From Centroscyllium fabricii (lineage: Eukaryota), in assembly GCA_051313645.2 (NCBI GenBank), contig JBNRSN020000010.1:5580001-5644000 (forward strand): a DNA stretch of 64,000 bases. Reading direction: 5' to 3'. Shown here piece by piece: positions 37,189-64,000 of this stretch. The notes beneath the pieces are model-generated. The model saw nothing but the letters and a program-made list of their open reading frames with translations, did no database searches and had not been told where the DNA came from. Made by a program: the position numbers and the translations under genes. Positions within the stretch are counted from its first letter, which is position 1, and the number at the start of each line of letters is the position of its first letter.

Positions 37189-37233
37189 GGTTGTTTGTAG
37201 GTGTTTGTTACCTCACAGTCCAGTTCATGTTGA

Positions 37234-37932: not shown

Positions 37933-38075
37933 GTAGCCCGGTTTCGTGCGAGTTTTCCAGGCAATAATCTCTGAATCTCTGAATCTGAGTAGCTGCACTC
38001 CACAGGGCGCCAGAGAGTTAAGATAATTTACTCGTAAATCTTCTTTTTCTTTGGACAGGCATTGATTTTACCCTA

Positions 38076-38614: not shown

Positions 38615-39558
38615 TGTTGGAGAGTGTATTAACTGACACTCGATGCGAGGTTTCAGATTGATATTCAAGTGGTCTTTATTACGCCGGTGGGGAGCCAGTC
38701 TCTCACCAACAGACTTCTCCAACTTGTTACAGTGCGTACAGCATTTATTTATGCAGGTTGAGCACCGTTAATCCAGCACCCCCGGGACCAGGCCGGTGCC
38801 GGACCATTGAAAATTCCAAACCACTGAAGGTTTGGGGAGGAGCGCGCGGGTAGAACACTCCCCGGGTCCCGGAGCGCGCGGGTAGAACACTCCCCGGGTC
38901 CCGGAGCGCGCAGGTAGAACACTCCCCGGGTCCCGGAGCGCGCAGGTAGAACACTCCCCGGGTCCCGGAGCGCGCAGGTAGAACACTCCCCGGGTCCCGG
39001 AGCGCGCAGGTAGAACACTCCCCGGGTCCCGGAGCGCGCAGGTAGAACACTCCCCAGCAGGGAGCCCGGGGATCGAACACTTAAAAGACCTGAAAAAGCA
39101 GAAACCCAAACGCCCAACGCTTTCGGCGCTCACTCACCCTTCCGGGGAAACGGCGCCGCCGAGCGGCTGCTCTGCAAAATGAAGAGCGCCGGTTTCCAAT
39201 CGTGCCGAACCACTGAAGCTGCCGGACCATCGGATGCCGGATTACCGGTGCTCAACCTGTACTTTCAAATACCTCGTAGCGACCTTGTGACTTACAATCT
39301 TATTGGACTCCTGCAGTTGCTTAATTGGATTATAAGCTGCATGATTCAAACCGGCCAATTGACCTCTGGATGATGGCATGCAGCTTTTGGTTGATTTTAC
39401 TAACTCTGTACAGCTGCTGATTGAAAGATCAGTTTTGATCACATTACAAAACCTCATCAAGGTGCTTTCTGCTTTGATAAGCAGCCACGAGTTTCTGCGC
39501 ACACATACTGCTTTGCAAGCTGTCAGCAAATTTTTAACTTTAACACTTTCCATCTTCA
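38615..39558 (-). repeat. Putative 3' LTR of the provirus (about 440 bp after removing the MITE)
   Basis: Minus strand: PPT AAAAGGGGGG-C then TGAAGATGG...; TATAAA across the MITE insertion site; AATAAA at 38675-38680; ends ...CCAACA. The second LTR is not available, so the left boundary is tentative. Confidence 0.6.
38754..39259. mobile_element. pogo/Tigger-like MITE with an internal 32-bp tandem array (about 38839-39056, 7 copies)
   Basis: TIRs CAGGTTGAGCACCG.TAATCC.GCA / TGC.GGATTA.CGGTGCTCAACCTG; TA on the right and TG (mutated TA) on the left. Confidence 0.88.
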
Positions 39559-39674
39559 GCCCCCCTTTTGGTTCGTGGCCCCTGCCCAAGTTAACCACAC
39601 ACACACACGAGTGTGTCTCCTGCTCCTCACGGTGATCAAGCGCTGGTTTGGGGGACCCGGCACACTCCGCATGC

Positions 39675-40156
39675 TTATATTAGTTTATTTTGCTCGCTGA
39701 CTATTGCTTTGGCTATTTCCTTGTTTCTCCTCCTCCTGCCCGTGGCGCATGCCGCTATTCCCCACCTTACTGCTAAAACTAACTGTACTACCACAAGTAT
39801 GTGTGATAGAATTCGGATCCAGGGGTGGATGTTAACATTCATTCCCCAGTCCCATATTTTCTGGTACCATGGGACTTCCCTCAATTTTTTCATCTATGTC
39901 TTTTCCTAATGTCTCAAGATTTCCCCTCAACACATGGCATTGCTTGACCATCTTCTGTAAGTTGTTTTTTATTTCTCATAAATCCTTTGGCAGTTGAGGA
40001 ATTGGAGCCCCGATCTGATCCTCATACTCCTGGAAGTCCCTTCCTAGTTCCTCTGTCACATTAGGCGCTTCCTTGGGCTTGTGTATATTAGTCTGGTATG
40101 CCCAATGGACACGGGATGCACGTCAGTGGTGTAAAGCAGAAGTTAGGCATGGTAAT
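39675..40156 (-). pseudogene. env: env C-terminus: Trp-rich membrane-proximal region, TM anchor and basic tail
   Basis: VPWYQKIWDWGMNVNIHPWIRILSHILVVVQLVLAVRWGIAACATGRRRRNK, immediately upstream of the PPT and LTR. Confidence 0.75.
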
Positions 40157-40538
40157 AGAAACATAGAAACTAGGAGCAGGAGTAGGCCATTCGGCCCTTC
40201 GAGCCTGCTCCGCCATTCAATGAGATCATGGCTGATCATCCAAACCCAGTCCCCTGCCCTCTCCCCATATCCCTATCGAGCCTGCATCGACACACATCCC
40301 ACCCTATCCCCGTAACCCCACATATTCAATCCCCCTAACACTAGGGGTCAATTTATCATGGCCAATCAACCTAACCCGCACATCGTTGGACTGTGGGAGG
40401 AAACCGGAGCACCCGGAGGAAACCCACGCAGACACGGGGAGAATGTGCAAACTCCACACAGATAGTACCCGAGGCTGGATTTGAACCCGGGTCTCCAGTG
40501 CTGTGAGACAGCAGTGCTACCCACTGTGCCACTGTGCC
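40157..40538 (-). mobile_element. Full-length HE1-like V-SINE inserted in env
   Basis: V core and tRNA head; GTAAT duplication at 40152-40156 and 40539-40543. Confidence 0.9.
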
Positions 40539-40540
40539 GT

Positions 40541-40819
40541 AATGTTGCATACAAGGTCCGCGTACCGGTATCTAGTTGTGGTCGCACAGTACCCACCACC
40601 CCCACTCCCACCCCTTGTATCCTGAGTGAATGTTATGGTGGTCAGCATGCAAAACCTTTAGCATGCACCCTTCCGTCTTACTGTATCCACACTCGTCCTT
40701 TCGGCCCTCTCTTGTTGAATGCAGGCACACTGATGGTTCCCTTCCTAGCACATCCATCAAAGGATACACCTCTCGGTGCCCTTCCATTTTACAGCACAGG
40801 TGTTGACCAGATAGTTCAC
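40541..40819 (-). pseudogene. env: env internal cysteine-containing fragment
   Basis: LSGQHLCCKMEG...VCLHSTREGRKDECGYSKTEGCML; lies collinearly between the other env pieces. Confidence 0.55.
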
Positions 40820-41477
40820 AGAAACATAGAAGATAGGAGCAGGAGTAGGCCATTCGGCCCCTCGAGCCTGCTCTGCCATTCAGTGAGATCATGGCTGATC
40901 ATCCAAACTCAGTACCCTTTTCCTGCCTTCTCCCCATATCCCTTTAGCCTTAAGAAATATATCTAACTCCTTCTTGAATATATTTAATGAATTTTATTTT
41001 TTTTATTCATTGATGGGATGTGGGAGTCACTGGCTGGCTAGGCCTGCATTTTAGTGCCCATCCCTAATTGCCCTTGAGAAGATGGTAGTGAGCCGCCTTC
41101 TTGAACCGCTGCAGTCTTATTGTTTTTTGTAGCGGTTGTTTACAACTGAGTGGCTTGCTGGTGTGGTAACCCTTGTATATAATGTTTACCACTGTTATTA
41201 TTGTACCAATAATGGGCTGTGCAGATGTAAGGCACAGCCCTGTATACTGTGTAATACTGTTGGGAGCCAGGTCAGCCACACCTCTAACTCCTCCCCCAGG
41301 TGAGGCCCCTTTATAGGTGGAAACTGACCGAGGCTCCTCATTCCTGTACTGAAGTTCGTTCCGGAGGGTAGCTCCGTTCTTTAGCGATTAAAAGCCTTTA
41401 GTTTCGGTAACTACTCGTCGACTCTTTTAATCTAAGGTATTGACGATACGTCAATTTTAATCGCTAAATATTTTTAA

Positions 41478-43144
41478 ATGGAGAGCAGCGCAGTTAAACC
41501 TGAGAAGCTGGACATCAGTCCCCAGGACCCTGCCGCTGCTACCACGTTCGAACACTGGTTCGGCCTCCTGGAGGCCTACATGGACGCCGCCAAGGCTACA
41601 TCGGACGGGAACAAATTGCAGGTCCTCCGGTCGAGGATCTCCAGCAGGGTATTCACCCTCATCAGGAACGCCTCAACCTACACAGCGGCCATACGACAAC
41701 TACGAAAATGCTACGAGCGCCCGGTCCATTCGGTCTACGCCCGACATGTGCTTGCGACCAGATCTCAGCTACCGGGTGAGTCCAATGAGCAGTTCGAGCA
41801 AGCGCTCCTGGTACGGGTCTGTGGCTGCCAAGTCAGAACAGCTGAAGAGGAGGCAGAACTCCTCGTTCGGGACGCTTACGTTACGGGACTAAGGTGTGTG
41901 GAAGCCCGCCAGCGGCTACTTGAGAAAGACAATCTATCCCTCGAGGAGGCGACTAAGATAGCCAAATCAGTAGAGGGGGCCCGAAACAAGTTACAGGCGT
42001 ACAGCGGCACTAACCCGCAAGCCTACAACATATGGGCCGCGCCACAACAGGCCCAGGCCTGGGCAGCACCACAACGGGCCGAGACCCCCACGATGGCTGC
42101 GACAGCCACAAAAGATAAGCGCTGCTACTTCTGCAACCAGGGACTGCACCCACGAGCGAAATGCCCGGCCAGGACAGCGACTTGTGAGAGATGCGCCAAG
42201 AAAGGTCATTACGCTAAAGCCTGCAGATCAGCTCCAGCACCGTCTAACCAAAGGTACAACAGTGCAGCCTGTGAGAGCACCGACAGACACCAGGTAAGCT
42301 GCAATAGCAGCGCGATCCAGCGACGGTCCGGGGGTAGACAACAAGCGCCCCCATCTCCCACCTCGATGCGGCAAAGGCCGGCCAAGCGCGACCCCCCAAC
42401 GCGGCCAGCTGCGTGCGAATCACGGGCACCGCCAACCCGACCACCGCGGCCCGCTGCGTGCGAATCACGGGCACCGCCAACCCGATCACCGCGGTCCGCT
42501 ACGTGCGAATCACGGGCGCCCCAGCGCGCTCACAGCGGCCCACCAAGTGCGACCCCCCGGCGACGCCATTTTGTACCCAGGGCCCCTCCATGTGTGAGCC
42601 AGGGGTGCCGCCATTTTGTATCCAGGGCCCCTCCATGTGTGGGCCAGGGGCGCCGCCATCTTGTATCCAGGGCCCCACCATGTGCGAGCCAGGGGCGCCG
42701 CCATCTTGTGTACAACCCTGACCAGCAGGGGCCCCACGCACACAGAAACGCACGGCTGCGGCAGGCAAAATCAGAGTGAACCAGGACAGGCCACATACCC
42801 TGTCTAACTCTATAATGCCAATTTTGATTAATGACTACACTGTTAACTGCCTTTTTGACACAGGAAGCACTGAGAGTTTTGTACACCCCGATACAGTGCA
42901 GCGCTGCGGACTGCAGGTCCTGCCCACCAACTACCAAGTCTCCCTAGCTTCACAGTCCCACACCGCGGACGTCACCGGCTACTGCTCCATCACGCTCACC
43001 GTCAAGGGGCGCGTGTACCGTAATTTTAAATTGTATACCCTCCAGCAGTTGTGTGCCCCAGCCTTACTAGGTTTGGATTTTCAGTGCCACCTCAAGAGCG
43101 TGACAATGGAGTTCGGCGGGACCTTCCCTCCTCACCGTCAGTAG
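41478..43144 (+). CDS. Gypsy A gag and protease (frameshifted relative to Gypsy B)
   Basis: ORFs 41478-42779 (CYFC...H....C and CERC...GH....C) and 42776-43144 (CLFDTGSTESF, LLGLDF). Confidence 0.85.
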
Positions 43145-43286
43145 CCGGGACAATCCCTTCCCAAAGCGGAGCCCAGCCTGCGGCCTCTCCACCCTGAAAA
43201 TCGACCCCCCCTCGCTGTTCGCCAACCTCGATCCGAAGTGCAAACCCATTGCTACTAAGAGTCGGCGGTACAGTGAGGGGGATCGT

Positions 43287-45719
43287 ATGTTTATCAGGTC
43301 GGAGGTCGGGCGGATGCTGAAGGAGGGGATAATTGAAGCCAGCACCAGCCCCTGGCGCGCCCAAGTTGTAGTGGTGAAGTCTGGCGAAAAACAGCGGCTG
43401 GTTATCGATTACAGCCAGACTATCAACCGCTACACCGGGCTCGACGCCTACCCCCTTCCCCGCATCTCGGAAATGGTCAATCAGATCGCCCAGTACAAGG
43501 TGTTCTCCACGATCGACCTTAAATCGGCGTATCATCAGCTCCCGATTCGGAAAGCCGACTGCCCCGACACCGCCTTCGAGGCGAACGGTCGGCTCTACCA
43601 CTTCCTCCGGGTCCCCTTTGGCGTGACCAACGGAGTGTCAGTGTTCCAACGGGAGATGGACCGTATGGTTGACCAAAATGACTTGCAGGCCACTTTCCCT
43701 TACCTGGACAACGTGACCATCTGCGGCCACGACCAGCAGGACCACGATGCCAATCTGGCCAAATTTCTCGCCACGGCGGACAAGCTGGACCTTGCGTACA
43801 ATAAGGACAAATGTGTCTTTAATACAGACCGGCTCGCCATCCTCGGATACGTGGTGGAGAACGGGGTCCTCGGCCCCGACCCACAGCGTATGCGACCCCT
43901 GCAAGAACTGCCCCTACCTCACAACCCCAAAGCCTTGAGGAGATGCCTAGGATTTTTCTCCTATTATGCACAATGGGTCCCACAGTTCGCAGATAAGGCT
44001 AGACCACTCCTCAAGGCTGCCGTCTTCCCCCTTTCTGTAGAAGCCCAAACGGCATTCGCAAGGATAAAGGAAGATATTATCAAAGCGACCATGCTCGCTG
44101 TTGATGAATCCATCCCTTTCCAGGTGGAGAGCGACGCTTCAGACTTCGCCCTTGCTGCCACCCTGAATCAGGCAGGCAGGCCCGTAGCGTTTTTCTCCCG
44201 CACCTTACAGGGACCCGAAACTCGCCACTCCGCAGTGGAAAAGGAGGCCCACGCCATCGTGGAGGCCGTGCGCTACTGGCGTCATTACCTGGCCGGTAAG
44301 CGTTTTACCCTGCTCACCGACCAACGGTCGGTGGCGTTTATGTTTAATAATAAACAACGGGGTAAAATCAAGAATGATAAGATCCTGCGGTGGCGGATCG
44401 AACTCTCGACTTACGAGTACGACATTCTTTACCGACCAGGTAAACTCAATGAACCCCCGGACGCACTGTCCAGGGGAACGTGCGCCAGTGCCCAGCTCGA
44501 CCGGCTGAAGGACCTCCACGACCGCCTTTGCCACCCGGGTGTCACCAGACTCGCCCATTTCGTTAAGTCCCATAGCCTCCCCTACTCCATCACGGAGATC
44601 AAGGCTATGACCCGAGAGTGCCCTGTCTGCGCCGAGTGCAAACCCCACTTTTTCCGGCCAGACGCTGCGCACCTCATTAAGGCCACCCGCCCCTTTGAAC
44701 GTCTCAGCGTGGACTTCAAAGGCCCCCTCCCTTCCACCGACCGCAACTCATACTTCCTCACGGTAGTAGATGAGTTCTCCCGCTTCCCCTTCGCCTTCCC
44801 CTGCGCAGATATGACGAGCGCAACGGTGATCAAACACTTCACCACGCTGTTCGCCATTTTCGGTCTCCCCAGCTACATCCATAGCGACCGGGGGTCATCG
44901 TTCATGAGCGATGAACTGCGCCAGTTTCTGCTCCAGAAAGGGGTTGCCACGAGCAGAACGACCAGTTATAACCCCCGGGGGAACGGCCAGGTAGAAAGGG
45001 AGAATGGGATCATTTGGAAGGCGGTCACCCTGGTTCTCAAGTCCAGAGGCCTTCCGGTGTCCCATTGGCAGGCAGTCCTCCCAGACGCGCTGCACTCTAT
45101 ACGCTCTCTATTATGTACCGCTACTAACGCCACCCCGCACGATCTGATTTTCTCCTTCCCTAGGAAATCGACTTCGGGGACAGCTCTTCCTCCATGGCTG
45201 ACGATTCCGGGGCCGGTTTGGCTTAGAAGGCATGTCCGGAGCCTCAAGACAGACCCCCTGGTGGACAAGGTACAGCTCCTACACGCGAACCCCCACTATG
45301 CATTCGTGCAGTTCCCGGACGGGCGTGAGGACACCGTGTCCATCAGGGACCTGGCTCCCGCAGGAAGCACCACCGCAGAGCCCCTGGCCGGCCAGCAGGC
45401 CGCTCAGCCGCGGTATCCAGAAAACCCACCAGACACACGATGGCCCCTGAGCTTCCCAGCACAGAACTACGACGCGGACGGCGGGGACCAGCCGGATCCA
45501 CCGCCACCAGAAGCCACGGCACCCGATCAGCGGTCACCACCGGCAGATGCAAGTGGTACGAACCAGGAGGCGCCACCACCAACACCGGAACGCTGGCGGT
45601 CCTCCAGGCAGACACGACTGCCGGACAGACTGATCATGAACTGTTTGGCCCATTCACCCCCCACCCCCCCGGACTTAAAATTTTCAAGAAGGGGTGAATG
45701 TGGTAACCCTTGTATATAA
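43287..45719 (+). CDS. Gypsy A RT, RNase H and integrase
   Basis: IDLKSAYHQ, PFGVTNG, YLDNV, VESDASD, HDRLCHPG...CPVCAEC, SVDFKGP, IHSDRG, GNGQVEREN. Confidence 0.93.
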   Translation: MFIRSEVGRMLKEGIIEASTSPWRAQVVVVKSGEKQRLVIDYSQTINRYTGLDAYPLPRISEMVNQIAQYKVFSTIDLKSAYHQLPIRKADCPDTAFEANGRLYHFLRVPFGVTNGVSVFQREMDRMVDQNDLQATFPYLDNVTICGHDQQDHDANLAKFLATADKLDLAYNKDKCVFNTDRLAILGYVVENGVLGPDPQRMRPLQELPLPHNPKALRRCLGFFSYYAQWVPQFADKARPLLKAAVFPLSVEAQTAFARIKEDIIKATMLAVDESIPFQVESDASDFALAATLNQAGRPVAFFSRTLQGPETRHSAVEKEAHAIVEAVRYWRHYLAGKRFTLLTDQRSVAFMFNNKQRGKIKNDKILRWRIELSTYEYDILYRPGKLNEPPDALSRGTCASAQLDRLKDLHDRLCHPGVTRLAHFVKSHSLPYSITEIKAMTRECPVCAECKPHFFRPDAAHLIKATRPFERLSVDFKGPLPSTDRNSYFLTVVDEFSRFPFAFPCADMTSATVIKHFTTLFAIFGLPSYIHSDRGSSFMSDELRQFLLQKGVATSRTTSYNPRGNGQVERENGIIWKAVTLVLKSRGLPVSHWQAVLPDALHSIRSLLCTATNATPHDLIFSFPRKSTSGTALPPWLTIPGPVWLRRHVRSLKTDPLVDKVQLLHANPHYAFVQFPDGREDTVSIRDLAPAGSTTAEPLAGQQAAQPRYPENPPDTRWPLSFPAQNYDADGGDQPDPPPPEATAPDQRSPPADASGTNQEAPPPTPERWRSSRQTRLPDRLIMNCLAHSPPTPPDLKFSRRGECGNPCI

Positions 45720-46239
45720 TGTTTACCACTGTTATTATTGTACCAATAATGGGCTGTGCAGATGTAAGGCACAGCCCTGTATACTGTGTAATACTGTTGG
45801 GAGCCAGGTCAGCCACACCTCTAACTCCTCCCCCAGGTGAGGCCCCTTTATAGGTGGAAACTGACCGAGGCTCCTCATTCCTGTACTGAAGTTCGTTCCG
45901 GAGGGTAGCTCCGTTCTTTAGCGATTAAAAGCCTTTAGTTTCGGTAACTACTCGTCGACTCTTTTAATCTAAGGTATTGACGATACGTCAGCTGGGCCAT
46001 TTCAGAGGACATTAAGTGTCAACCACATTGCTGTTGGTCTGGAGTCACATGTAGGCCAGACCAGGTAAGGACAGCAGATTTCCTTCCCTAAAGGACATTA
46101 GTGAACCAGATGGGTTTTTGCAACAATCGACAATGATATCATGGACGCCATTACTTAGACTAACATTTAATTCCAGAATGAAATTGAATTGAATTTAAAT
46201 TCCACCAGCTGCCGTGGTGGGATTTGAACCCTGTTCCTG

Positions 46240-46515
46240 GGACTAGGGACAGGGTCACTGGCAAGGCTTGGAAGCTAAGCAGAGCCAGGCCTGGTTAGTA
46301 CTTGGAAGGGTGACCACCAGGGAATACCAGGTGCAGAAGGTCACGAAAGGAGCCCTGGGGAGGGGCGGTTGGCTGAAGATTGTCGGAAAGATGGAATGGC
46401 GGCGCGCACGGACACAGCGGCTTTGCTGGACTCTTGGGAGCTTGCAAGATCACATTTCGTTGTCCATGTACTTGTACATTGTATAATGACAATAAAGTTG
46501 AATTATTATTATTAT
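46240..46515 (+). mobile_element. 5S rRNA-derived SINE (SINE3-like)
   Basis: 46269-46340 GGAAGCTAAGCAGAGCCAGGCCTGGTTAGTACTTGGAAGGGTGACCACCAGGGAATACCAGGTGC matches the 5S internal control region; unrelated body, then AATAAA and an (ATT)n tail. Confidence 0.75.
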
Positions 46516-48087
46516 CATATCCTCAGAGCATTTGACTGAGCATCTGGCTTACTAGTCTAGTGACATAACTACTACGCCACCGCCTCCCCCAATTGGCATC
46601 CACCGCCTTCTGCGGTAGAGAATTCCACAGGGTCACCACTCTGGGTGAAGAAATTCCTCATCTCAGTCCTAAATGGCTGACCCCGTATCTTTAGACTGTG
46701 ACCCCTGGTTCTGGACTCCCCGACCATCGGGAACATCCTTCCTGCATCTAGTCTGTCTAGTCCTTTTTAGAATTTTATACATTTCAATTAGATCCCCTCT
46801 CATTCTTCTAAACTCCAGCAAGTACATGCCCAATCAACCCAATCTCTCCTCATACGTCATCCCTGCCATCTCAGGTATCAACCTGGTGAATCTTTGCTGC
46901 ACTCCCTTCGTGGCAAGAACATCCTTCCTCAGATAAGGTGACCAAAACTGTACACAATACTCAAGATGTGGTCTCACCAAGGCCCTGTATAACTGCAGCA
47001 AGACGTCCTTGTTCCTGTACTCAAATGCTCTCGCTACGAAGGCCAACATACCATTTGCCTTCTTAACCGCCTGTTGCACCTGCATGCTTACCTTCAGCGA
47101 CTGGTGCACAAGGACACCCAGGTCTCGTTCCACTTCCCCTTCTCCCATTCTATTACCATTCTGATAATTTGCCTTCCTGTTTTTGACACCAAAGTGGATA
47201 ACCTCACATTTATCCACGTTATATTGCATCTGCCATGCTTCTGTCCACTCACCCAACCTGTCCAAATCATACTGGAGTTTCTCGGCATCCTCCGCAACAC
47301 ACACGCCCACCCAGCTTTGTGTCATCTGCAAACTTGGAGATATTCATAGAATCCCTACAGTGCAAATAGAGGCCATTTCGGCCCATTGAGCCTGCACCGA
47401 CACATTTCCCACCCTCTCCCCGTAACCCCACACATTTAATCGCCCAAACACTAAGGATCAATTTATCCTGGCCAATCAACCTAACCCGCACATCTTTGGA
47501 CTGGGAGGAAACCGGAGCACCCGGAGGAAACCCACGCAGACACGGGGAGAATGTGCAAACCCCACACAGATAGGCACCCGAGGCCGGATTTGAACCCGGG
47601 CCCCTAGCGCTGTAAGGCAACAGTGCTAACCACTATGCCACCGTGCTGCCCGTCTAGATCATTAATATATATTATGACTAGTTGGAGTCCAAGGACCGAT
47701 CCCTGCGGTACCCCACTAATCCCTGCCTGCCACTCGGAAAAAGACCCGACAATTCCTACTCTCTGCTTTCTGTCCGCCAACTAGCTCTCTATCCAAGTCA
47801 ATACGTTGCCCCAATCCCATGTGCCTTAACTTTACACGCTAATCTCTTACGCGGGACCTTATCGAACACCTTTTTAAAGTCCAAATACACCACATCCACT
47901 GGTTTTCCCTTCTCTATTTTACCAGTTACATCATCAAGCAATTCCAGTCGATTAGTCAAGCACGACTTACCCTTTGTAAATCCATGTACTAGATGTATGT
48001 TTCCCCTCTTGTCACACCTATATTTCCACCTGATATTGAAGTGAGGACGCGGTTTCTGACCCTACCGCCGGTACCAAGAATACCAAT

Positions 48088-49880: not shown

Positions 49881-50122
49881 ATGATAACAAAATACTGCAG
49901 ATGCTGGAAATCCAACACAACAACAGAAAATGCTGGAAAAACTCAGCAGAAAAACTGATTGATAAAGGGAACTACCTAAAACGTTCACAACTAGGGGGAA
50001 TCAAGAGGTATGGTGAGAAAGCAGGAATGGGGTACTGAGGTAGCATGTTCAGACATGAACGCATTAAATGGCGGTGCAAGCTCGAAGGACCGAATGGTCT
50101 ACTCCTGCACCTATTTTCTATG

Positions 50123-53100: not shown

Positions 53101-56100
53101 CGCCATCCTCGGATACGTGGTGGAAAACGGGGTCCTCGGCCCCGACCCACAGCGTATGCGTCCCTTACAGGAACTGCCCCTACCTCACAACCCCAAAGCC
53201 CTGAAGAGATGTCTGGGATTTTTCTCTTATTACGCGCAATGGGTTCCCCAGTTCGCGGATAAGGCCAGACCGCTCCTCAAGGCTGCCGTCTTCCCCCTCT
53301 CGGTAGAAGCCCACACGGCGTTCGCCCGGATCAAGGAAGATATTATCAAGGCGACCATGCATGCCGTTGATGAGTCCATCCCTTTCCAGGTGGAGAGTGA
53401 CGCTTCGGACTTTGCCCTTGCCGCCACCCTGAATCAGGCAGGCAGGCCCGTAGCGTTTTTCTCCCGCACCTTACAGGGACCCGAAACTCGCCACTCTGCA
53501 GTGGAAAAGGAGGCCCAGGCCATCGTGGAGGCCGTGCGCTACTAGCGTCATTACCTGGCCGGTAAGCGTTTTACCCTGCTCACCGACCAACGGTCGGTCG
53601 CGTTTATGTTTAACAATAAACAAAAGGGTAAAATCAAGAATGATAAGATCCTGCGGTGGCGGATCGATCTCTCGACTTACGAGTACGACATTCTTTACCG
53701 ACCAGGCAAACTAAATGAACCCCCGGACGCACTGTCCAGGGGAACATGCGCCAGTGCCCAGCTAGACCGGCTGAAGGAACTCCACGATCGCCTCTGCCAC
53801 CCGGCTATCACCAGACTTGCCCATTTCGTTAAGTCCCGTAGCCTCCCCTACTCCATCACGGAGATCAAGGCTATGACCCGAGAGTGCCCTGTTTGCGCCG
53901 AGTGCAAACCCCAATTTTACAGGCCAGACACGGCACACCTCATTAAGGCCACCCGCCCCTTTGAACGTCTAAGCGTGGACTTCAAAGACCCCCTCCCCTC
54001 CACCGACCGCAACTCGTACTTCCTCACAGTCGTAGACGAGTTCTCCCGCTTCCCCTTCGCCTTCCCCTGCCCAGATATGACGAGCGCAACGGTGATCAAA
54101 CACTTCACTACGCTGTTCCCCATTTTCGGTCTCCCCAGCTACATCCATAGCGACCGGGGGTCGTCGTTCATGAGCGACGAACTGCGTCAGTTTCTGCTTC
54201 AGAAAGGGGTTGCCTCAAGCAGAACGACCAGTTACAACCCCCGGGGGAACGGCCAGGTAGAAAGGGAGAACGGGATCATCTGGAAGGCGGTCAGCCTGGC
54301 CCTGAAGTCCAGAGGCCTTCCAGTGTCCCGTTGGCAGGCAGTCCTCCCAGACGCGCTGCACTCCATCCGCTCTCTGCTGTGTACGGCTACCAACGCCACA
54401 CCTCACGAATTGCTCTTCTCCTTCCCCAGGAAGTCGACTTCGGGGACAGCACTCCCACCATGGCTCACGATGCCGGGGCCGGTCTTACTTAGAAAGCATG
54501 TCCGCGGCCATAAGACCGACCCCCTGGTGGAGAAGGTGGAGCTACTGCACGCTAACCCACAGTACGCATACGTGCAGTTCCCGGATGGGCACGAGGACAC
54601 AGTTTCCATCAGGGACCTAGCACCCGCCGGGAGCACCGCAGCAGAGCCCCTGGTCGGGCCTCAGCCCGACCAGCCACTACCTAACAACCACTGGCCTACA
54701 CACCAACCACAACCCACCGGATTTTGGCCTATGCACACACACACACCGGAGACCCGCCACTACCAGCCGAGGACCAAGAACCGGACGCCGCACCGCAGGC
54801 ACAGCAGCAGCCGGAGGGCCCGGTCCCACCGACACTACCGGCACCAGCGCCGCCGACACTGCAGGCACCAGCGCTGCTAACAGAGGCCCGGCGGTCCTCA
54901 AGACAGACGCGACCGCCGGAGAGACTTATTATGAACTGCTCTGTCCATTCACCAAGCCGGAATTAATTTTCAAAGAAGGGGTGAATGTGGTAACCGTTAT
55001 ATAGTGTTTATTACCATTGTAATAGTGAAGCACAATATCAACCAGCATGTATAGTGGCTGGGTGCACCATACACTGTTTTGTAGTGCGACACTGTCGCGG
55101 GGTCCGGTCAGCCACAGCTCTAACTCCTCCCCTCAGGTGAGAGCCTTATAGGTGGGGTCTGACCTGCCCCCATTCATTCTGTACCTGATGTTCGACCGGA
55201 GCGTAGCTCCTTTGTAAAGCTAATAAAAGCCTAGAGTTAAGGTAACTACTCCTCTTTAGTATTATTGTATTATTGATGATACGTCAGATATATAACACAG
55301 TGGTTTACCACATTCACCCCTTGTTTAAAATAAAGTCCGGCGGGGTAAATGCTGTGCAACCATTAAATGTTCAGTCTGTCGGGTGGCCGGGTCTGCCTTG
55401 TCGAGCGGCGCACCGTTGGCGGCGGTGTCGGCGGTGGGGGTGTCGGCGACGGTGTTTGCTCCGATGCGGGGCCCCTTGCGGTAACGGTCACTGGCGCGCT
55501 CTTCCATTCGTCATCCGGCTGGTGGGTGCGTAGGTTAGGGGGCCATACCGTGCTGCCTGCAGGTGCTGGGTGGGCGTACCGTGGTGCTGGTGCCTCGAGG
55601 GGTATGACGTACCTTGGTGCTGGTGCCCCAAAGGTGGCGGTGGGCGGGGGGGATGCGGGCTGATTGGTCCTACTGGTCTCGGGGGCACCCAAGGGTGCCA
55701 GGTCCTTGATGGACACCGCATCCTCGCTCCCGTCAGGGTACACCACCTAGGCGTACTGGGGGCTGGCGTGCAGGAGGTGGACCCGTTCGATCAGGGGGTC
55801 CGACTTATGGCCCCTCACGTGCTTCCGGAGCAGGACGGATCCTGGGGATGATAGCCAAGACAGCAGCGAGGTCCCTGAAGCCGACTTCCTAGGGAAGGCA
55901 AAAAGTCACTCGTGAGGGGTGGCGTTAGTGGCCGTACAAAGAAGCGACCGAATGGAGTGGAGCGCTTCGGGGAGGACGTCCTGCCAGCGGGAGACTGGGA
56001 GGCCTTTAGACCGTAGGGCTAATAGGGTGGCCTTCCAGACGGTGGCGTTCTCCCTCTCTACCTGTCCGTTCCCCCGGGGGTTATAGCTGGTAGTCCTGCT

Positions 56101-59100
56101 CGGGGCGATGCCCTTGGCGAGCAGAAACTGACGCAGCTCGTCACTCATGAAAGAAGCCCCCCGGTCGCTATGGATGTAGCTGGGGTACCCGAACAGGGAG
56201 AAGATGCTGTGCGGTGTCCTAATGACCGTTGAGGAGGTCATGTCCGGGCAGGGGATGGCGAGTACTCGTCAATGATGTTTAGAAAGTACACGTTGCGGTT
56301 AGAGGAGGGGAGGGGCCCTTTAAAGTCGACACTGAGTCGCTCAAAAGGGCGGGTGGCCTTGATCAGGTGTTCCCGGTCCAGCCGGAAGAAGTGCGGCTTG
56401 CACTCCGCACAGACCCGGCAGTTCTTGGTCATGGTCTTGACCTCCTCGATGGAGTAAGGAAGGTTGCGGGACTTGATAAAGTGGACGAACCTGGTGACCC
56501 CCGGGTGGCAGAGGTCGTTGTGCAGGGTCTGAATACGGTCCACTTGTGCGCTGGCACATGTACCGTGGGGCAGGGCATCTGGGGGCTCATTGAATTTCCC
56601 GGGCCAGTACAAGATATCGTAAGTGAAAGCAGAGAGCTCAATTCTCCACCTCAATATCTTGTCATTCTTGATTTTACCCTGCTCTTTGTTGTTGAACATA
56701 AAAGCGACTGAGCGTTGGTCAGTCAGCAGGGTAAATCGTTTGCCGGCCAGGTAGTGCTTCCAGTGTCGCACTGCTTCAACAATGGCCTGGGCCTCCTTCT
56801 CAACGGAAGAGTGTCGGGTCTCAGGGCCCTGGAGGGTGCGTGAGAAGAAGGCCACGGGTCTGCCCGCCTGGTTAAGGGCGGCGGCCAGGGCAAAGTCGGA
56901 CGCATCGCTCTCTACCTGGAACGGGATGGACTCGTCCACAGCGTGCATCGCGGCCTTTGCAATGTCCTGTTTTATGCCGCAGAAGGCCATGCGGGCCTCT
57001 GCCGACAGGGGAAAGGAGGTTGATTTAATAAGTGGGCGGGCCTTGTCCGCATAATTGGGGACCCACTGGGCATAATAAGAAAAGAACCCCAGGCACCTTT
57101 TCAGGGCCTTGAGGGAGTGGGGGAACGGGAGCTCCAGGAGGGGGCGCATGTGGTCCGGGTCAGGACCGATGACCCCATTCTCCACAACACTGCCGAGGAT
57201 GGCGAGGCGGGTTGTCCTGAACACACATTTTTCCGTGTTATAGGTCAGATTCAGATTTTTGACAGTGTGGAGAAATTTCTGGAGGTTGGTGTCATGGTCC
57301 TGCTGATCGTGGCCGCAGATGGTAACATTATCAAGATACGGAAAGGTGGCCCGCAGTCCGTACTGATCAACCATTCGGTCCATCTCCCTTTGGAAGACCG
57401 AGACCCCGTTGGTGACACCAAACTAAACCCTGAGGAAGTGATAGAGGTGGCCGTCTGCCTCGAAAGCAGTATAGTGGCGGTCCTCTGGGCGGATGGGGAG
57501 CTGGTGGTACACAGACTTCAGATCGATGGTCGAGAAGACCCGATATTGTGCTATCTGGTTCACCATGTCCGCTATGCGGGGAAGGGGATACGCATCTAGC
57601 TGCGTGAACCGATTAATGGTCTGACTGTAGTCAACGACCATTCGGTGCTTGGCTCCGGTCTTTACCACCACTACCTGCGCCCTCCAGGGGCTATTACTGG
57701 CCTCGATGACCCCTTCCTTCAGGAGCCGCTTCGCCTCTGACTTAATAAAGTCTTTGTCCCCGGTTCTGTAGCGCCTACTTTTGGTGGCGACGGACTTGCA
57801 GTCCGGGGTGAGGTTGGCGAAGAGTGAGGGAGGGGCGACCTTAAGGGTCGTGAGACCGCAGGTAGCGCGTTGTGGGCACTGCGGGGAGCGCTGGTTGCTG
57901 ACCGTGAGCGGGGGAAGGGGCCCACCATACGCCATAGTCACGCTCTGGAGGTGACACTGGAAATCGAGGCCCAGCAGTAAGGGAGCGCAGAGCTGCGGCA
58001 GCACGAATAGTTTAAAATTTTGAAAATGTGCGCCCCGCACTGTCAGGGTCACAACGCAGCGACCACAGACGTCCGCGGATTCGGACTTTGAAGCCATCGA
58101 AATTTTTTGGCTAGCCGGTGTGACTGTTAGGGAGAAGCGCTTTACCGTATCGGGGTGTATGAAGCTCGCCGTACTCCCGCTGTCGAAAAGGCAGTCCGTA
58201 CTTTGCCCGTTCACCTGCACCGTCATCATCGATTTGCTGAGTGGTTGGCTCCTGTTCTGGTCAAGGGTGATGGAGGCCAGTATCGGGTCGGTCGAGTCAG
58301 TTGAGAGGTCTGGGGCCTGGTCCCAAGATGGCTGCCGCCACGCGGCGGTCTGTGTGGGAGATGGCTGTGTCCAAGATGGCGTCTGCTCCCACGCGGCGGG
58401 CTGTGTGGAGGATGGCTGTGTCCAAGATGGCTGGCCCCACAGGCCACACGCGGCGCTGCCCGGTTTGGAGGTCGATTGCGCTGCTGCTCTGCATACCTTC
58501 GCATAGTGGCCCTTCTTTCCGCACTTGGAGCAGGCCGCGTCTCTTGCCGGGCAATTTCGCCTGGGGTGCTGAGCCTGGCCGCAGAAATAACACTTTGGGC
58601 CTTTGGAGGTTGTGGCCGCAGTCATCTCATCCGCTGGTCGCAATGCGGCCGGCTGTGTCCAAGATGGCGGCGTCCGCGATGTGCGCGCGTGGTCAGAGGA
58701 GTAAGCGGCCATATTATGTGACGCCAAGTCCAGCGAGTTTGCAAGTTCAATCGTCGCCTGCAGGTCCAGGCCATTCTGCTCCAACAATCTCTGCCTGATA
58801 TAATCTGACCTGAGGCCGGTAACATAAGCGTCCCTGATGAGGCTTTCGGAGTGCACTAAGGCCGTCTGTGACTTACAGTTGCAGGCCCGGCAGAGGACTC
58901 TCAGCGCTCGTAGGAACTCCACGCCCGATTCCCCGGGTTGCTGCTTTCTGGTGGCCAGGAGGTGTCTGGCGTAGACGATGTTCGGTGCCCGGGTGTATTC
59001 GGCCTTCAGGATTCGGACCGCCTCGGTATAGGACGTAGCATCCGCGATTATTGAGTACACCTGGGGGCCCACCCGGGCGTTGTGAAGGCGCAGTTTGTCT

Positions 59101-59544
59101 CTGTCCGTCTGGATGATCGACGCGGTGGCTTCGAGGTACGCCTCGAAGCAGTTGAACCAGTGCGTAAACGTGTTAGAGGTGCCTGGTGTGTGGGGATCCA
59201 GTTCTAATGTCGCTGGTTTTAGCATTAGCTCCATGATGAAATGTAGCGAATAAAATTGAAACCTTATCAATAACCTCGGAGACGAGAAGTTATGGGTGAA
59301 TAAAAGGCTTTTATTCGCTAAGACATGGGCATGCCCCAGCTAGTCGACTGCTCCCGGAATGATCGGGGGGAGGGAGACAGTCACCTTTATACCTGGTCCA
59401 GGGAGGAGGAGCCACAGGCAGAGCCAGCACGGGCATGCCCAGACAAGCTATACAGGGAGGACTATATACACACAGAGAGGGTCATACATACAATGCTGAA
59501 GGTTATAGATATGGTACAGATATATAACACAGTGGTTTACCACA
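50123..59544 (-). mobile_element. Gypsy LTR retrotransposon C, full length, degraded
   Basis: 5' LTR 59257-59544; 3' LTR 50123-50434 plus 55292-55312 (split by Gypsy B); TSD CTATG; gag-pro-RT 57423-59270, RT-RH-IN 56238-57383, IN 55363-56241 with stops and a frameshift. Confidence 0.96.
50435..55286 (+). mobile_element. Gypsy LTR retrotransposon B, full length, nested in the 3' LTR of Gypsy C
   Basis: LTRs 50435-50724 and 54986-55286; TSD GATAT; PPT AGAAGGGGTGAA; gag-pol essentially in one frame (50749-54966) with a frameshift near the start, a TGG>TAG stop at 53543-53545 and a late frameshift; close relative of Gypsy A. Confidence 0.96.
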
Positions 59545-59636
59545 CTATGTTTCTATGTGTTTCTCTCCACCGATGCTGTCTGAACTGCTGAATTTTTCCA
59601 GCATTTTCTGTTGTTGTTTTAGTCCATCTTATAACA

Positions 59637-59990
59637 TTGTCCACACAGCTCAGGACATATCCTTCCCCCTACTTGACCCAACACCTGCCAGTGTCTATTA
59701 CATCTTACCATATTGCTGGCATTTGTCATTCCACTTGGTCCGCATGTTCATTGATCCAAGTTCACCCAGGTACCGTTACACCCGGAGCACCCCTTTCCTT
59801 GTTTTTCACACTCGTAGCTGTTTGACATGGTGAAGCCTCCCGTGGAGTCGCCATTGGGGGATCTTAACTTGCAATCCATTTCTTCCAGCCCGTTATTTGG
59901 GTTTACAAGTGCCGTCATCAGGGTTGTTGTGACAATCCATCTTATGGGATCCATGTTTATCTGTAATTTAAACAGAGATCTGGTCGTCAC
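59637..59990 (-). pseudogene. env: env N-terminus (signal-peptide-like, Cys-rich)
   Basis: MDPIRWIVTTTLMTALV...DCKL...YECEKQGKGCSGCNGTW; directly downstream of integrase and joined to 49880 through the 15-bp duplication. Confidence 0.6.
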
Positions 59991-59999
59991 CAGATGTTA

Positions 60000-60896
60000 G
60001 TGCGTCCTTTATGCCCGTTTTTCCTCCATTCCTGTCATTTCAATTGTGTGTTATGTTTCCACCTACCCCCAACCTTTAATGTCGACCCAAGTGCAAGTGT
60101 TGCTGGTCATAATCACTTCGAATGGTCCGGTCCGCCTCAGAGAATCCTGACCTATCCGCTGGGACCTGGATGAATACTCGGTCACCCACTACGGGCGAGG
60201 GTCCTGATATTCCTCCAGTCTAGTTATCCCTATCTCTAATCTCTTCCCTTATTTCTCTCCTGAGCCCCTTTAGTTGGTGGTCTAATGTTTGTACATAACA
60301 CCTGATTTTGTCCCTTATTGGTCCTAATTCCTCACTCCCAGAGGCCACAGCTTCGGGCAGCTGTATTGCACGTCTGGTCACAAGTTCATATGGTGTAAAC
60401 CCGGTCATTCTACGAGGAGTTGCCCTGAACCATATTTGGATACATAGAAACATAGAAGATAGGAGCAGGAGTAGGCCATTCGGCCCTTCGAGCCTGCTCC
60501 GCCATTCAATGAGATCATGGCTGATCATCCAAACCCAGTATCCCGCCCCTGCCCTCCCCCATATCCCTCGATCCCTATCGAGTCTGCATCGACACATATC
60601 CCACTCTATCCCTGTAACCCCACATATTTAATCGCCCTAACACTTAAGGGTAAATTTATCCTGGCCAATCAACCTAACCCGCACATCTTTGGACTGTGGG
60701 ATGAAACCGGAGCACCCGTAGTAAACCATACACAGGAGGACGTCCAGCCACCTTGTCCGGGCTCGGTTATTGCCTTTGTTACAGTCGTATTTATGGTCCG
60801 GTTCATCCGTTCCACCATCCCTGAGCTTTGCGGGTGATCGGGTACGTGGTCTGTCCTTCGTTTTTGCACGACTGTCTTCCACCGTACATCGATTAC
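60000..60896 (-). pseudogene. Integrase remnant of the provirus, split by a V-SINE (60443-60717)
   Basis: HVPDHPQSSGMVERMNRTI and RATPRRMTGFTPYELVT.R. Confidence 0.85.
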
Positions 60897-61855
60897 TAGT
60901 TCAAGTTCAAGTTATATTTGTCACATGTACTAAATACAATTTAGACAGTGAAATGCTTACTGCGATCCGAACACACCGCGCAACAAGGAAATTACGCACG
61001 GAGCCCGCAAGACGTCAGCCATTCTACGGCGCCATCATCGTGGGTCCCGTTCCTGCTCCGGCTTCTCTGTTCGATGTTCTTCCTCCTCTGCTGCTCCGTT
61101 TACTTTACTCCGCTGCTGCCTCTACCGTTGTTTCTCGTCGCAGATGTGAAGCGGGTGCGGTGTCCGATGGCCCGGGCCTACCACATGGCCCGACGCCAGG
61201 CCGAGACCCCTGAATCCTCCCGAACTCCCAGCCGAATAGGTCTTAAAGGGGAAGCAGAGCAGCATCTTTTCCTCCCCGCGCTCTCATCAATTGGCCAATC
61301 GGGGGCCACCCAACCCCCATCACCGCTCTCTGATCAGTTGCTGGATCGGGGGGTCGGGCGACGCCCGAGCGGCAACAGATCAGAGAACGGGGAGGGAGTT
61401 TGGGCGGATGCCCTCTCCGCTCTCATCAATTGGCCGTTCGGGCCGACTCTCTCCACCCCCCCTCATCAGCTGGCCGCTTGGACTGAAGAGCGAGGGTGGC
61501 ACTATTAGCAGCGCTGCAGCGGCCACTCAAACCCATTGCAGCGCTTGCCGAAGCTGGCGCTGGCAGCGCGGGGCGAGGTGGACTGTCGCATAAGCAAATT
61601 TCAGGCACAGTCCGGCGGGCGGGCGTTGCACATTCATTTCCACGAGGATTGCTGATCGCTAATTAGCGCGCGCTAACGTTTAGCGCCTGGCACTAATTTG
61701 GCGCCGGCCCATTAGCGCCGATTTTCAGCGCTAATGGGCCGACGCTAAGGCGCCAATTTCACGCCCATAGAGTTATACAGCACAGAAAGAGGCTCATTGT
61801 GTCCGCGCCAGCCATCAGGCCCTTTCTATTCCCATTTTCCAGCGCTTGGTCCATT
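60897..61855. mobile_element. Composite insertion: retroposon 3' tail ((TTGAAC)n on -), GC-rich palindromic MITE-like segment and CR1-like tail
   Basis: GTTCAAGTTCAAGTTATATTTGTCAC at 60899; hairpin CCCATTAGCG...CGCTAATGGG at 61708-61738; interrupts pol. Confidence 0.45.
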
Positions 61856-61859
61856 AAAA

Positions 61860-63850
61860 CAGACCTCCGCTTCCTTTGTCACCGCGACTGGCACCTCTAG
61901 AGCCACTACTTTGGCTTTCTGCTGGTTATCTACTTCGGTCACCCACCTGACCAGGTCGTCATAAGTCTGCATTGTGACCAATCATGTCTTTAATATGGCC
62001 TGGTGGGCATTGCTCAGTCCCTCTTTGTACATCTTTAGGAATGCCAAATTGTCGCTGTGTGATGAAATATGTATGTTCATCAGTCTGTGCTTTTCACCTG
62101 GACTTGCCTGTGCTAGGAATGTATGGAATGTATGTACCGCCCACCTTTGTCTATTGTATATGTCGGGCTCCACCCTTGTCTTTTGTTATACGGAGGACTC
62201 CAGAGCGGCTTGAGCCATTCGACCTGGAGAACTCAGTGTGAGAACATGCACCACAGTTCTTAGTTATTAAAAGCCTACCTTTAAGTCCTTAAACCTCTCG
62301 CTTGGATTATTAATGGCCTATCACCCTGTGTGGCGCTATTATCACGGAGTACTCATAATTGTGAGCAGATTCCCTTTTATTTTGAGTAATTCCTATGACT
62401 ATTCCCCAGTTTACGGGTACGACTCTCATAACACGAGTTACGTCGTCCCTAAACTGCGTATAAGCAGCCTGGTGAAGTGCGGCTGTGGGGGCTACATCCT
62501 GACACCATGTCCCATCCCTAAAGTCTGTTCCTAATCATTGCCACATGTCTTCACATGGCCAGGCCCTGAACCAGTCCCAGAAGGTCACGGTTATCGAAAT
62601 TATGACAGATCCTCATCTCCCTCAGTTTTTTGCCAAAAAGTCCATGTTACTTTGTCGCGGCTCTGGGTCTGGCAATAATTGCAACAATTTTAATCTGTGT
62701 CTCCTGGAGAGAATGATACGTATGTCATCTTGTCTTGATCTGGGACTGCCAGGGAACCTCCGCCTGACCTGCAGGAGTTCCCGGTCGAAATTCTACCTTA
62801 ACTTCCCCAGTCATTATCATCCCTATTATGTTCGGCCGTCTTTCTATCTAAGTCGCCTCAATCTATTCCATCCTGGTCTTCTCCTTTCAATGGCCCTGGT
62901 AATGCTGGGACTGTGGCCATTACTGGTACCCTGGTAAAATGTTGCCAGCCGTTTTTGGTCAATGTACGAGTACCGCTACTCAGTTCGTAATAGGCACGCA
63001 TTACTAATATTATGGCTTTTTCTTCTTTCTTTCTGTTTGGTTTGGTTTTCCTACCATTCTCTTTGTTTACTAGATTCATAGAAATATAGAAGATAGGAGC
63101 AGGAGTCGGCCATTCGGCCCCTCGAGCCTGCTCCGCCATTCAGTGAGATCATGGCTGATCATCCAAACTCAGTACTCTGTCCCTGCTTTCTCCCCATATC
63201 CCTTGATCCCTTTAGCCTTAAGAAATATATCTAACTCTTTCTTGAATATATTTAATGAATTGGCCTCTACCGTCTTTTGTGGTGGAGACTTCCACAGGTT
63301 CAACACTCTCTGGATGAAGAAATTCCTCCTCATCTCAGTTCTAAATGGCTTACTCCTTATCCTTAGACTATGACCCCTGGTTCTGGACTCCACGACCATT
63401 GGGAACATCCTTCCTGCATCTAGTCTGTCCAGTCCTGTTAGAATTTTATATAAGTTTCAATGAGATCCCCTCTCATTCTTCTAAACTCCAGCGAGTATAA
63501 GCCCAATCGACCCAATCTCTCCTCATACATCATTCCTGCCATCCCAGTTATCAGTCTGGTGAATCTTCGCTGCACTCCCTCCATGGCAAGAACATCCTTC
63601 CTCCGATAAGGCGACCAAAACTGCACACAATGTTCAAGATGTAGTCTCACCAAGGCCCTGTACAACTGCAGCAAGACATCCTTGTTCCTGTACTCAAACC
63701 CTCTCCCGACGACAGGTACATCGTTGGCTTGCCAATCATTTTTAAGCATTATTTTCAAATAACCATTTGTTTATTACTGCTAGGTACTGTGTGAGGGACC
63801 CTTCTGGCCACCAATCGAGCGCGTCCTCCTTACCGGCCGCCATTCTGTCT
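61860..63850 (-). pseudogene. RNase H-like (61860-62240) and gag-like (62250-63850) remnants of the provirus
   Basis: MAQAAL...DIYNRQRWAV resembles SAQAAEL...IYTDSRYA; candidate gag start MAAGKEDALDWWP near 63843; MHR-like TQNKRESAHNY. Heavily degraded. Confidence 0.45.
63078..63708 (-). mobile_element. CR1 LINE 3' fragment
   Basis: RGFEYRNKDVLLQLYRALVRLHLEHCVQFWSP...GYGEKAGTEY*. Confidence 0.9.
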
Positions 63851-64000
63851 GGGTTTAGTTATTGTCAGAGGTACACCTGTTGCCATACTTCATCCCGAAG
63901 TCAGCGCACTACTTGCAACTTATACCATGCGTAGTGTTCCGCATGTTTCGCCAAGATCCCTTTCGACCACTTGACCTTCAGGTTTCTTTTTGTTCTACAA

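Follow-up and report, generated by a model that had tools for sequence, protein, structure and literature searches.

A fragmented provirus with a probably F-like envelope gene in the genome of the shark Centroscyllium fabricii

Lokiretroviruses are organized as LTR-gag-pol-env, carry RATP in the integrase core, and encode an Env in which a signal peptide, an RxKR site and a long post-cleavage subunit are recognized by eye (PMC7947760; PMC9040795). Foamy virus Env is a structurally F-like subclass Ib fusogen with a long C-terminal subunit, laid out with a long leader and a receptor domain inserted before the SU/TM site (PMC11468914). F-like Envs occur in errantiviruses too, where the F-type Env is grouped with baculovirus F (PF12259; 10.1101/2023.10.26.564294). 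Further, gamma-type Envs with a furin site and CXXC are described from anamniote and chondrichthyan ERVs (10.1101/2021.11.23.469661; 10.64898/2026.05.06.723177), and the Ovex1/SpeV/CrocERV37-40 and SnRV-related ERVs are unclassified elements with a reconstructable Env (PMC4299795).

The analysed DNA is a stretch of 64,000 nt from Centroscyllium fabricii (hereafter the window), which holds a provirus in pieces on its minus strand. The preliminary description had proposed either a lokiretrovirus-like element or another unclassified enveloped retroelement, and the latter fits best; we find a fragmented provirus, a non-gamma Env and a long post-cleavage subunit. With a probability of about 0.55, we read the locus as the defective remains of a provirus with gag, a deleted pol, env, PPT and LTR, whose lineage would be neither Loki nor foamy in layout and would have encoded a putative F-like (subclass Ib) class I fusogen; this placement draws on about 200 decayed integrase codons and on by-eye comparison. 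The features, in the order of transcription, are as follows.

63715..64000, minus strand: possible 5′ part of gag, matrix-like by eye; disrupted, running off the window end, single-copy in the window
63077..63712, minus strand: LINE fragment inserted in the gag-like region, named CR1-type by eye; matches other LINE copies of the window
61830..63075, minus strand: gag-like remnant, broken up by stops and frameshifts and probably by a ~260-bp insertion at 62061-62322
60895..61780: non-viral insertion with internal inverted repeats, located where PR, RT and RNase H are expected
60728..60890, minus strand: C-terminal part of the integrase catalytic core, HPQSS at 60836; Pfam rve_3 E 0.09
60441..60727: SINE within the integrase, with a 7-bp flanking duplication
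60040..60434, minus strand: remaining integrase in three frames, RATP 60426, VGD 60189, GPF 60128, WKH 60061
59622..59957, minus strand: env piece 1, with ATG, weak signal peptide, Cys-rich N-terminal domain and one in-frame stop
49881..59621: nested insertion, 9.7 kb, of LINE/SINE pieces and two Gypsy elements
49036..49880, minus strand: env piece 2, frameshifted, with Thr/Pro stretch, GP-x-x-GL strand and RTRR (49527), then a fusion-peptide-like segment and a long helical region; profile E 1e-29
48093..49035: insertion, 943 bp, CR1-type LINE fragment
47990..48092, minus strand: env piece 3, a frameshifted beta-strand region containing an NIG motif; weakly supported
40820..47989: nested insertion, 7.2 kb, of LINE/SINE pieces plus a Gypsy element whose two LTRs are identical
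40541..40819, minus strand: env piece 4, conserved Cys/CG/YC region; profile E 2e-7
40157..40540: insertion, 384 bp, SINE
39675..40156, minus strand: env piece 5, with FCF motif, pre-membrane heptad helix and Trp-rich segment, ending in TM, basic tail and stop; profile E 8e-16
39559..39573, minus strand: polypurine tract (PPT)
38615..39558, minus strand: putative 3′ LTR, TG...CA, AATAAA at 38749 and 38680

The five env pieces were found on the minus strand where they had first been reported, and the proposal that they are parts of a single gene was confirmed, pieces 2–5 being collinear in a profile of natural relatives and piece 1 being joined through a 15-bp duplication. The profile, A2, comprises 26 natural relatives and leaves out 7 of 33 proteins (P0007, 11, 12, 20, 25, 27 and 30) for being short, chimeric or spurious; of these, P0025 is a Calx-beta repeat protein and P0027 consists mostly of a caspase domain. 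Searched against 2,398 stop-free stretches of the window, A2 matched eight, all within env pieces 2–5 and in order (profile positions 44–92, 93–115, 120–182, 185–317, 379–418, 414–442, 462–499 and 528–587), and gave no off-target match at E<1 among the 2,398. Pieces 2, 4 and 5 are collinear with natural shark proteins; tblastn of P0002 and P0016 against the window gave E values of 2e-36 over piece 2 and 2e-13 over piece 5, respectively, and piece 2 and P0002 share 44% identity across 120 aa (E 2e-28).

Segment scores of env pieces 1, 3 and 4 were compared with 500 shuffles. The score of the C-terminal part of piece 4, a piece shorter than in relatives, was reached by 0/500. One half of piece 3 aligned at the expected position with a score reached by 6/500, while the other half, also at the expected position, scored at chance level (193/500). 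Piece 1 showed no similarity to the relatives (184/500 and 480/500 shuffles reached the score), and it was assigned to piece 2 only because of the 15-bp duplication, whose two copies, at 59622 and 49866, are the only ones in the window; among 4,732 random flank pairs taken as a control, one had ≥12 nt in common. These results show a single env gene of ~680 codons (681 estimated), interrupted by four insertions.

The long post-cleavage subunit that had been noticed amounts to ~447 codons after RTRR, and the TM segment was likewise recovered (hydropathy 2.2); the signal peptide (0.64) and the fusion peptide (0.85) are weakly hydrophobic. A heptad signal was clear before the TM (2/500 shuffles), but none was obtained after the cleavage site (468/500, 76/500), where the preliminary description had placed a heptad-like region. 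Like the gamma-type Envs, the present Env has a furin site and, in piece 1, CXXC motifs, and comes from the same hosts. However, a gamma-type Env is marked by a short TM subunit that contains an ISD and CX6CC; neither was found in any minus-strand frame of the env pieces, in agreement with the preliminary description, and an ectodomain CX6CC is likewise absent. The TM subunit is more than twice as long, and Pfam gave no TLV_coat match for 22 window pieces and 26 relatives. Screens for gamma-type Envs select gamma-type features and would miss the present family.

Of the 33 relatives, 21 were traced; 15 of these come from sharks of six genera, and one is a multi-copy frog protein. XP_078086612.1, GCC29952.1 and KAM5193609.1 are intact, and apparently full-length natural ORFs were found in Chiloscyllium (739 aa) and Mantella (677 aa), the Mantella protein being present in 12 copies with 97.5–99.9% identity. 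The conserved A2 columns are P, RxxR, N, P-x-W, P, G, then C/CP/CG/C/GxG/C/C/C and W. Two basic sites are present in the relative from the frog, and the N-terminal domain of one relative is weakly Ig-like. No ISD was found in 31 relatives, and the sole CX6CC among these 31 falls inside a TM segment. A tree of the window piece and 14 of the 26 relatives, with 12 short rows omitted, had one well-supported branch among 12 inner branches. A phage collection searched with P0002 gave no match.

The claim that the Env is F-protein-like was sustained in part: language-model similarity and motif order judged by eye speak for it, whereas Pfam and PDB searches were empty. In the ESM Atlas, where shuffled proteins score 0.9 in 4–10% of searches, the relative P0001 matched a Baculo_F cluster at 0.93 (196/256 features; family on 61% of members) and a Fusion_gly cluster at 0.91 (family on 83% of members), while the full-length P0021 reached only 0.82, with an 874-aa chordate cluster lacking a Pfam family. 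By eye, the conserved A2 columns follow the same order as in the Loki Env consensus proteins. Above cut-off, Pfam assigned no family, Fusion_gly, Baculo_F and foamy Env included, to the 22 window pieces or 26 relatives; at E<10, A2 retrieved none of the F proteins of the PDB, and PDB sequence searches with A2, P0021, the gag pieces and the integrase tail gave nothing significant. Weak Pfam matches to GP41 (E 0.04) and BIV_Env (E 0.02) and weak single-member NCBIfam matches were dismissed as noise. Judged from sequence, the Env is probably F-like. F-likeness is not diagnostic of Loki, because the foamy Env is F-like as well.

Upstream, a gag-like remnant was additionally recognized by eye at ~61830–64000. 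It contains PVNW (62417) and TQN (62387), similar to the capsid major homology region, EGL (62023), similar to a capsid C-terminal end, and CFN (61861), similar to the start of a zinc knuckle; the assignment of 61830..63075 follows a by-eye reading and known family motifs, and neither Pfam nor the PDB supported the gag-like pieces. PR, RT, RNase H and the integrase N-terminus were not found between the gag and integrase remnants. The block at 60895..61780 gave no significant Pol-like tblastn match and, one chance-like FRDD excepted, was free of RT, protease and zinc-knuckle motifs; the window copy lacks RT, RNase H and the tether. With the integrase core as query, all 41 PDB sequences listed were integrases, Pol chains or an integrase fusion (best E 0.005), whereas the part at 60040..60434 had no Pfam or PDB match, and homologue searches with the integrase pieces yielded 0/428 and 0/1 candidates. 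The integrase end, an acceptor-like AG and the env ATG (59954) follow each other within ~90 nt of single-copy sequence. The position of env between integrase and PPT/LTR stands as described. The putative LTR carries an inserted terminal-inverted-repeat element of ~506 bp (about 38754–39259), so the LTR proper is ~440 bp. No second LTR was found in the window, so this one is putative. Scans of the window for tRNA and Rfam families found none.

A divergent lokiretrovirus, which would be the first from cartilaginous fish, is an unlikely reading. The Env motif order is common to Loki Envs and the integrase core has RATP and TG.TP.E as in Loki, but this core (RATP...TG.TP.E) is by eye about equally close to gammaretroviruses. 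The Loki label of the preliminary description was not borne out: RT and tether, which characterize that group, are absent here, as is the region where its second RNase H would lie, and the integrase tail and Env N-terminus are unlike the published Loki consensus proteins by eye. Loki integrases form a clade of their own in the published work. Of the tail signatures that we derived from 11 Loki consensus Pol ends, K[AT]YYD is present in 11/11 shown and a KLSPV/KVSSV-type motif in 10/11, while all frames of the window integrase tail lack YYD, Y.D.K, KLS and LP.HL motifs. Of the Loki Env layout (signal peptide, short F2-like part, RXKR, hydrophobic fusion peptide, coiled coil, TM), the cleavage site, the pre-TM helix and the TM are present here. 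In the complete Loki Envs compared, the signal peptide runs straight into the GP motif and the fusion peptide is long and hydrophobic; in contrast, the window Env family has an extra variable domain of ~150 residues between signal peptide and GP motif and a shorter, polar fusion peptide, a length of 680–740 aa vs. about 550–600 in Loki (by eye), and no Fusion_gly (PF00523) match in Pfam. As the preliminary description had stated, cartilaginous fish lie outside the reported Loki hosts (0/6 chondrichthyan genomes; Fig. S1, PMC7947760); that screen covered just six such genomes. Scyliorhinus torazame, negative there, carries four members of the present Env family. A foamy-like ERV is considerably less probable still. 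The F-like structure of foamy Env, the two basic sites of the frog relative and a cartilaginous-fish foamy ERV among the references of PMC11468914 agree with it, as does the long C-terminal subunit. However, the leader and receptor domain expected before the SU/TM site in Spumaretrovirinae were not seen: a signal peptide replaces the long leader, the extra domain is N-terminal, and a foamy-type receptor domain has no room before the site because only ~75–80 residues separate the GP-GL motif of the relatives from the basic site (layout from PMC11468914). Moreover, foamy Env has no Pfam match here, a GPF motif and a zinc-knuckle-like remnant are present, and the ~100 nt from env to PPT leave no space for accessory genes.

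A shark member of a described but unclassified group (Ovex1/SpeV/CrocERV37-40, SnRV-like, or with epsilon-type Env) is rather doubtful, though a stronger candidate than Loki; it overlaps with our preferred reading. The 874-aa cluster found with P0021 agrees with it, the Ovex1 Env being 873 aa. By description these elements resemble ours, being unclassified, with Env and, in some, a GPY/F motif plus gag zinc finger as here (PMC4299795), and the Env of epsilonretroviruses belongs to neither the gamma nor the beta type (10.1101/2021.11.23.469661). However, none of the 21 traced relatives (of 33) bears a bird or reptile name, an SnRV-like elephant-shark ERV combines a gamma-type Env with a Loki/Gypsy-style integrase tail (PMC4422223 supplement, by eye), and the SnRV integrase core seems less similar than that of Loki or MuLV by eye. 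If such membership were true, the novelty would be confined to the F-likeness of that type of Env. An env-carrying, errantivirus-like Ty3/Gypsy element in a vertebrate is very unlikely: the top Atlas clusters are arthropod Baculo_F/Gypsy Envs and the short polar fusion peptide is reminiscent of that group, but Baculo_F gave no Pfam match, the host is a vertebrate, and tblastn showed nothing significant against the Gypsy Pol proteins of the window itself. The region in which a Gypsy RT with a single RNase H would lie is missing. The capsid and integrase-tail motifs look retroviral, resembling those of gamma/epsilon retroviruses, which counts against Gypsy. Intact vertebrate homologues were not found in the errantivirus survey (10.1101/2023.10.26.564294). 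That gag, integrase, env piece 1 and LTR derive from different elements, with only env pieces 2–5 belonging together, is the most improbable. Piece 1 lacks homology to the relatives, the gag-integrase link spans a deletion and the LTR is unpaired, but the 15-bp duplication, the single-copy junction from integrase to env ATG and the canonical order on one strand throughout argue for one provirus.

For the preferred reading, an ancestral virus would have expressed env from a spliced mRNA, its product entering the secretory pathway by the signal peptide and being cut by a furin-type protease at RxKR/RTRR. The variable N-terminal domain, Cys-rich here, may have served as a receptor module ahead of an F2-like strand, and the ~450-residue C-terminal subunit may have started as a prefusion trimer and refolded into a six-helix bundle, like paramyxovirus F, baculovirus F and foamy Env. 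The window copy is dead and therefore has no present viral function.

More tentatively, an undescribed retrovirus lineage may be present in a frog, where it would have been active recently, and in sharks belonging to five or more orders; it would combine a canonical-type (non-Loki, non-foamy) gag-pol with an F-fold envelope bearing swappable N-terminal receptor domains. Since apparently full-length natural ORFs exist, public genomes give access to its fold and to the linked RT. Where retroviral env came from is debated, with independent env gains for Loki and canonical retroviruses preferred in PMC9040795, and an Env family widespread in sharks and a frog but invisible to Pfam offers a direct test. 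If true, vertebrates would have a third retroviral lineage equipped with an F-type fusogen, which would speak against independent gain of unrelated Envs by Loki and canonical retroviruses and favor an F-like Env that is either ancestral in retroviruses or has been exchanged widely between them.

Nested mobile elements have piled up in the 38615-64000 part of the window. Between them, single-copy remains of a provirus lie on the minus strand in the order gag-like region, remnant of the integrase, env in five pieces, polypurine tract and LTR-like end; from the integrase onward, this agrees with the order proposed in the preliminary description.

Features of the window
38615-64000, minus strand: provirus remnant with nested mobile elements
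59622-59957, minus strand: env piece 1
49036-49880, minus strand: env piece 2
47990-48092, minus strand: env piece 3
40541-40819, minus strand: env piece 4
39675-40156, minus strand: env piece 5
41162-45990: Gypsy element inside the dead env, 100% identical 292-bp LTRs, 5-bp flanking duplication
50436-55286: second Gypsy element, LTRs 92% alike
38754-39259: TA-flanked terminal-inverted-repeat (TIR) element inside the putative LTR, holding a 32-bp tandem array; related sequence near 21900-22080
62061-62322: candidate solo LTR (TG...CA, flanks near-duplicated) within the gag-like region; blastn found no other copy of it in the window
34087-38067: LINE whose endonuclease-RT ORF (1,041 aa) is open and is preceded by a 277-aa ORF
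18412-21489: BEL/Pao-like LTR element, fragmented (by eye)

The Gypsy at 41162-45990 is a recent insertion and, by its identical LTRs, the youngest of the Gypsy elements; a third, older one lies on the minus strand. The LINE, with a GC content of 31-35% over most of its length vs. ~50% nearby, is probably young and was possibly acquired by horizontal transfer. Four insertions, together with stops and frameshifts, disrupt the window env, and no PR, RT or RNase H was found in the window's provirus copy; the element is a real, dead provirus. Its integrase tail carries RATP, VGD, GPF and WKH motifs and appears nearer to the type of gamma- and epsilonretroviruses.

As a query, the longest of the open env pieces retrieved one relative, the bamboo-shark protein P0001 (44% identity, E 4e-15), and P0001 retrieved 32 more at E≤0.001 from 1.84 billion representatives. 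Of these 33 proteins, 26 were aligned (A2), seven short, chimeric or spurious rows being left out. The A2 profile contains no window sequence. When the whole window was scanned with it, 8 of 2,398 stop-free stretches matched, each of them within env pieces 2, 4 or 5 and perfectly ordered. A 15-bp duplication with exactly two occurrences in the window flanks a 9.7-kb insertion and joins piece 1 to piece 2 (at least 12 nt were shared by 1 of 4,732 random flank pairs); no similarity was found between piece 1 and the relatives. The proposal that all five pieces belong to one gene is thus supported for pieces 2, 4 and 5 by profile and for 1-2 by duplication, and piece 3 matched weakly but at the position predicted by the profile gap. 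The env comprises ~681 codons, ~447 of which follow the basic cleavage site RTRR in piece 2, in line with the long post-cleavage subunit (roughly 450 codons) described before.

Neither an immunosuppressive domain (ISD) nor CX6CC was found in the window env pieces; the ISD was also absent from 31 relatives, and the single CX6CC among relatives sits in a TM segment. Therefore, the Env family is not gamma-type, as anticipated, the type selected for by an anamniote survey (10.1101/2021.11.23.469661) and likewise by a chondrichthyan syncytin survey (10.64898/2026.05.06.723177). Judged from sequence, the family appears F-like, with a probability of about 0.8. In the ESM Atlas, a language-model protein search, the nearest clusters to P0001 were Baculo_F (0.93), Baculo_F/Gypsy (0.92) and Fusion_gly (0.91). 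By eye, the conserved A2 columns follow the same order as the lokiretrovirus Env consensus proteins in the supplement of PMC7947760: a GP-xx-G-L strand ~75-80 residues before the basic site, a first-helix Asn, L-x-x-G-x-x-P-x-aromatic, an L-x-x-P strand, N-hydrophobic-G and C...CP...CG...C; the ectodomain ends in a heptad helix, Trp-rich segment and TM. The claimed F-likeness is favored by these clusters and this motif order, but no Pfam family reached cut-off for window pieces or relatives, and the A2 profile matched no F chain in the PDB. The heptad signal of the first helical region was not significant, and the full-length relative P0021 gave only an uninformative 0.82 Atlas match.

The suggested lokiretrovirus label fared less well. 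RT phylogeny defines the lokiretroviruses, which have a tether plus RNase H and an F-like Env, and the screen in PMC7947760 was positive in 0 of 6 chondrichthyan genomes, consistent with the earlier suggestion that cartilaginous fish lay outside the reported hosts. F-likeness is not diagnostic, because foamy Env (PMC11468914) and errantivirus and baculovirus proteins (10.1101/2023.10.26.564294, PMC12583693) share the fold. The Loki Pol ends shown in the PMC7947760 supplement carry K[AT]YYD (11/11) and a KLSPV-type motif (10/11), both absent from every frame of the window integrase tail; the integrase core segment resembles Loki and MuLV to about the same degree (by eye, alignment of PMC9040795). 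The Loki Envs seen lack the ~150-residue N-terminal domain of the window Env, and their fusion peptide is longer and hydrophobic. Scyliorhinus torazame, Loki-negative in the screen, is the source of four Env-family members, three of them probably from the screened assembly, judging by their accessions, although these copies, too, may have lost RT. Integrase tail, Env layout, S. torazame and the non-diagnostic F-likeness therefore argue against membership, and the provirus is probably not a lokiretrovirus.

Nor does the foamy layout apply, because the Env family has no space for a receptor domain ahead of the cleavage site. Ovex1- and SnRV-related ERVs are described as unclassified and as having Env, some also a GPY/F motif and zinc finger (PMC4299795), the Env of epsilonretroviruses is reported to belong to neither the gamma nor the beta type (10.1101/2021.11.23.469661), and the SnRV-like elephant-shark ERV of PMC4422223 has, by eye, a gamma-type Env. 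Searches of an open-access library, and passages of 10.1101/2023.10.17.562709, PMC8227577, PMC11521997, PMC12440569, PMC12690878 and PMC13709493, yielded no account of a family of F-like Envs from shark ERVs; subscription papers, bioRxiv supplements or Repbase could hold one. That the family represents a third vertebrate retroviral lineage with F-fold Env is a tentative proposal, somewhat less probable than its opposite.

Gene order, collinearity, the junction duplication, motifs and decay were observed, and the working steps of Env are drawn from family knowledge. Env would be translated from a spliced mRNA (an acceptor-like AG precedes the ATG), carry a signal peptide, undergo furin-type cleavage, use its N-terminal domain as receptor module and refold F-type into a six-helix bundle. 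Later, the provirus lost most of its pol and took up insertions of LINEs and SINEs, of three Gypsy elements and of one TIR element.

Family members differ in their N-terminal domains. The single-member P0021 (Chiloscyllium punctatum), an apparently full-length 739-aa ORF with a weak likeness to Ig V domains in its N-terminal part (E 0.05-0.9), is a candidate for co-option. P0027, a short Env-family stretch fused to a caspase domain, is probably a gene-model chimera. The cluster of P0032, from the frog Mantella aurantiaca, has 16 members; the 12 retrieved are each 677 aa and 97.5-99.9% identical, a likeness that implies recent amplification of an intact relative.

Among 21 relatives with a source looked up, 15 come from sharks (Chiloscyllium, Mustelus, Scyliorhinus, Pristiophorus, Heterodontus and Heptranchias) and one from M. 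aurantiaca, so that the shark host suggested for the window DNA is likely, short of proof. The named relatives are all labelled hypothetical or uncharacterised, one additionally "Ig-like domain-containing", and the provirus marks an Env family that is poorly annotated and occurs in sharks and in at least one frog.
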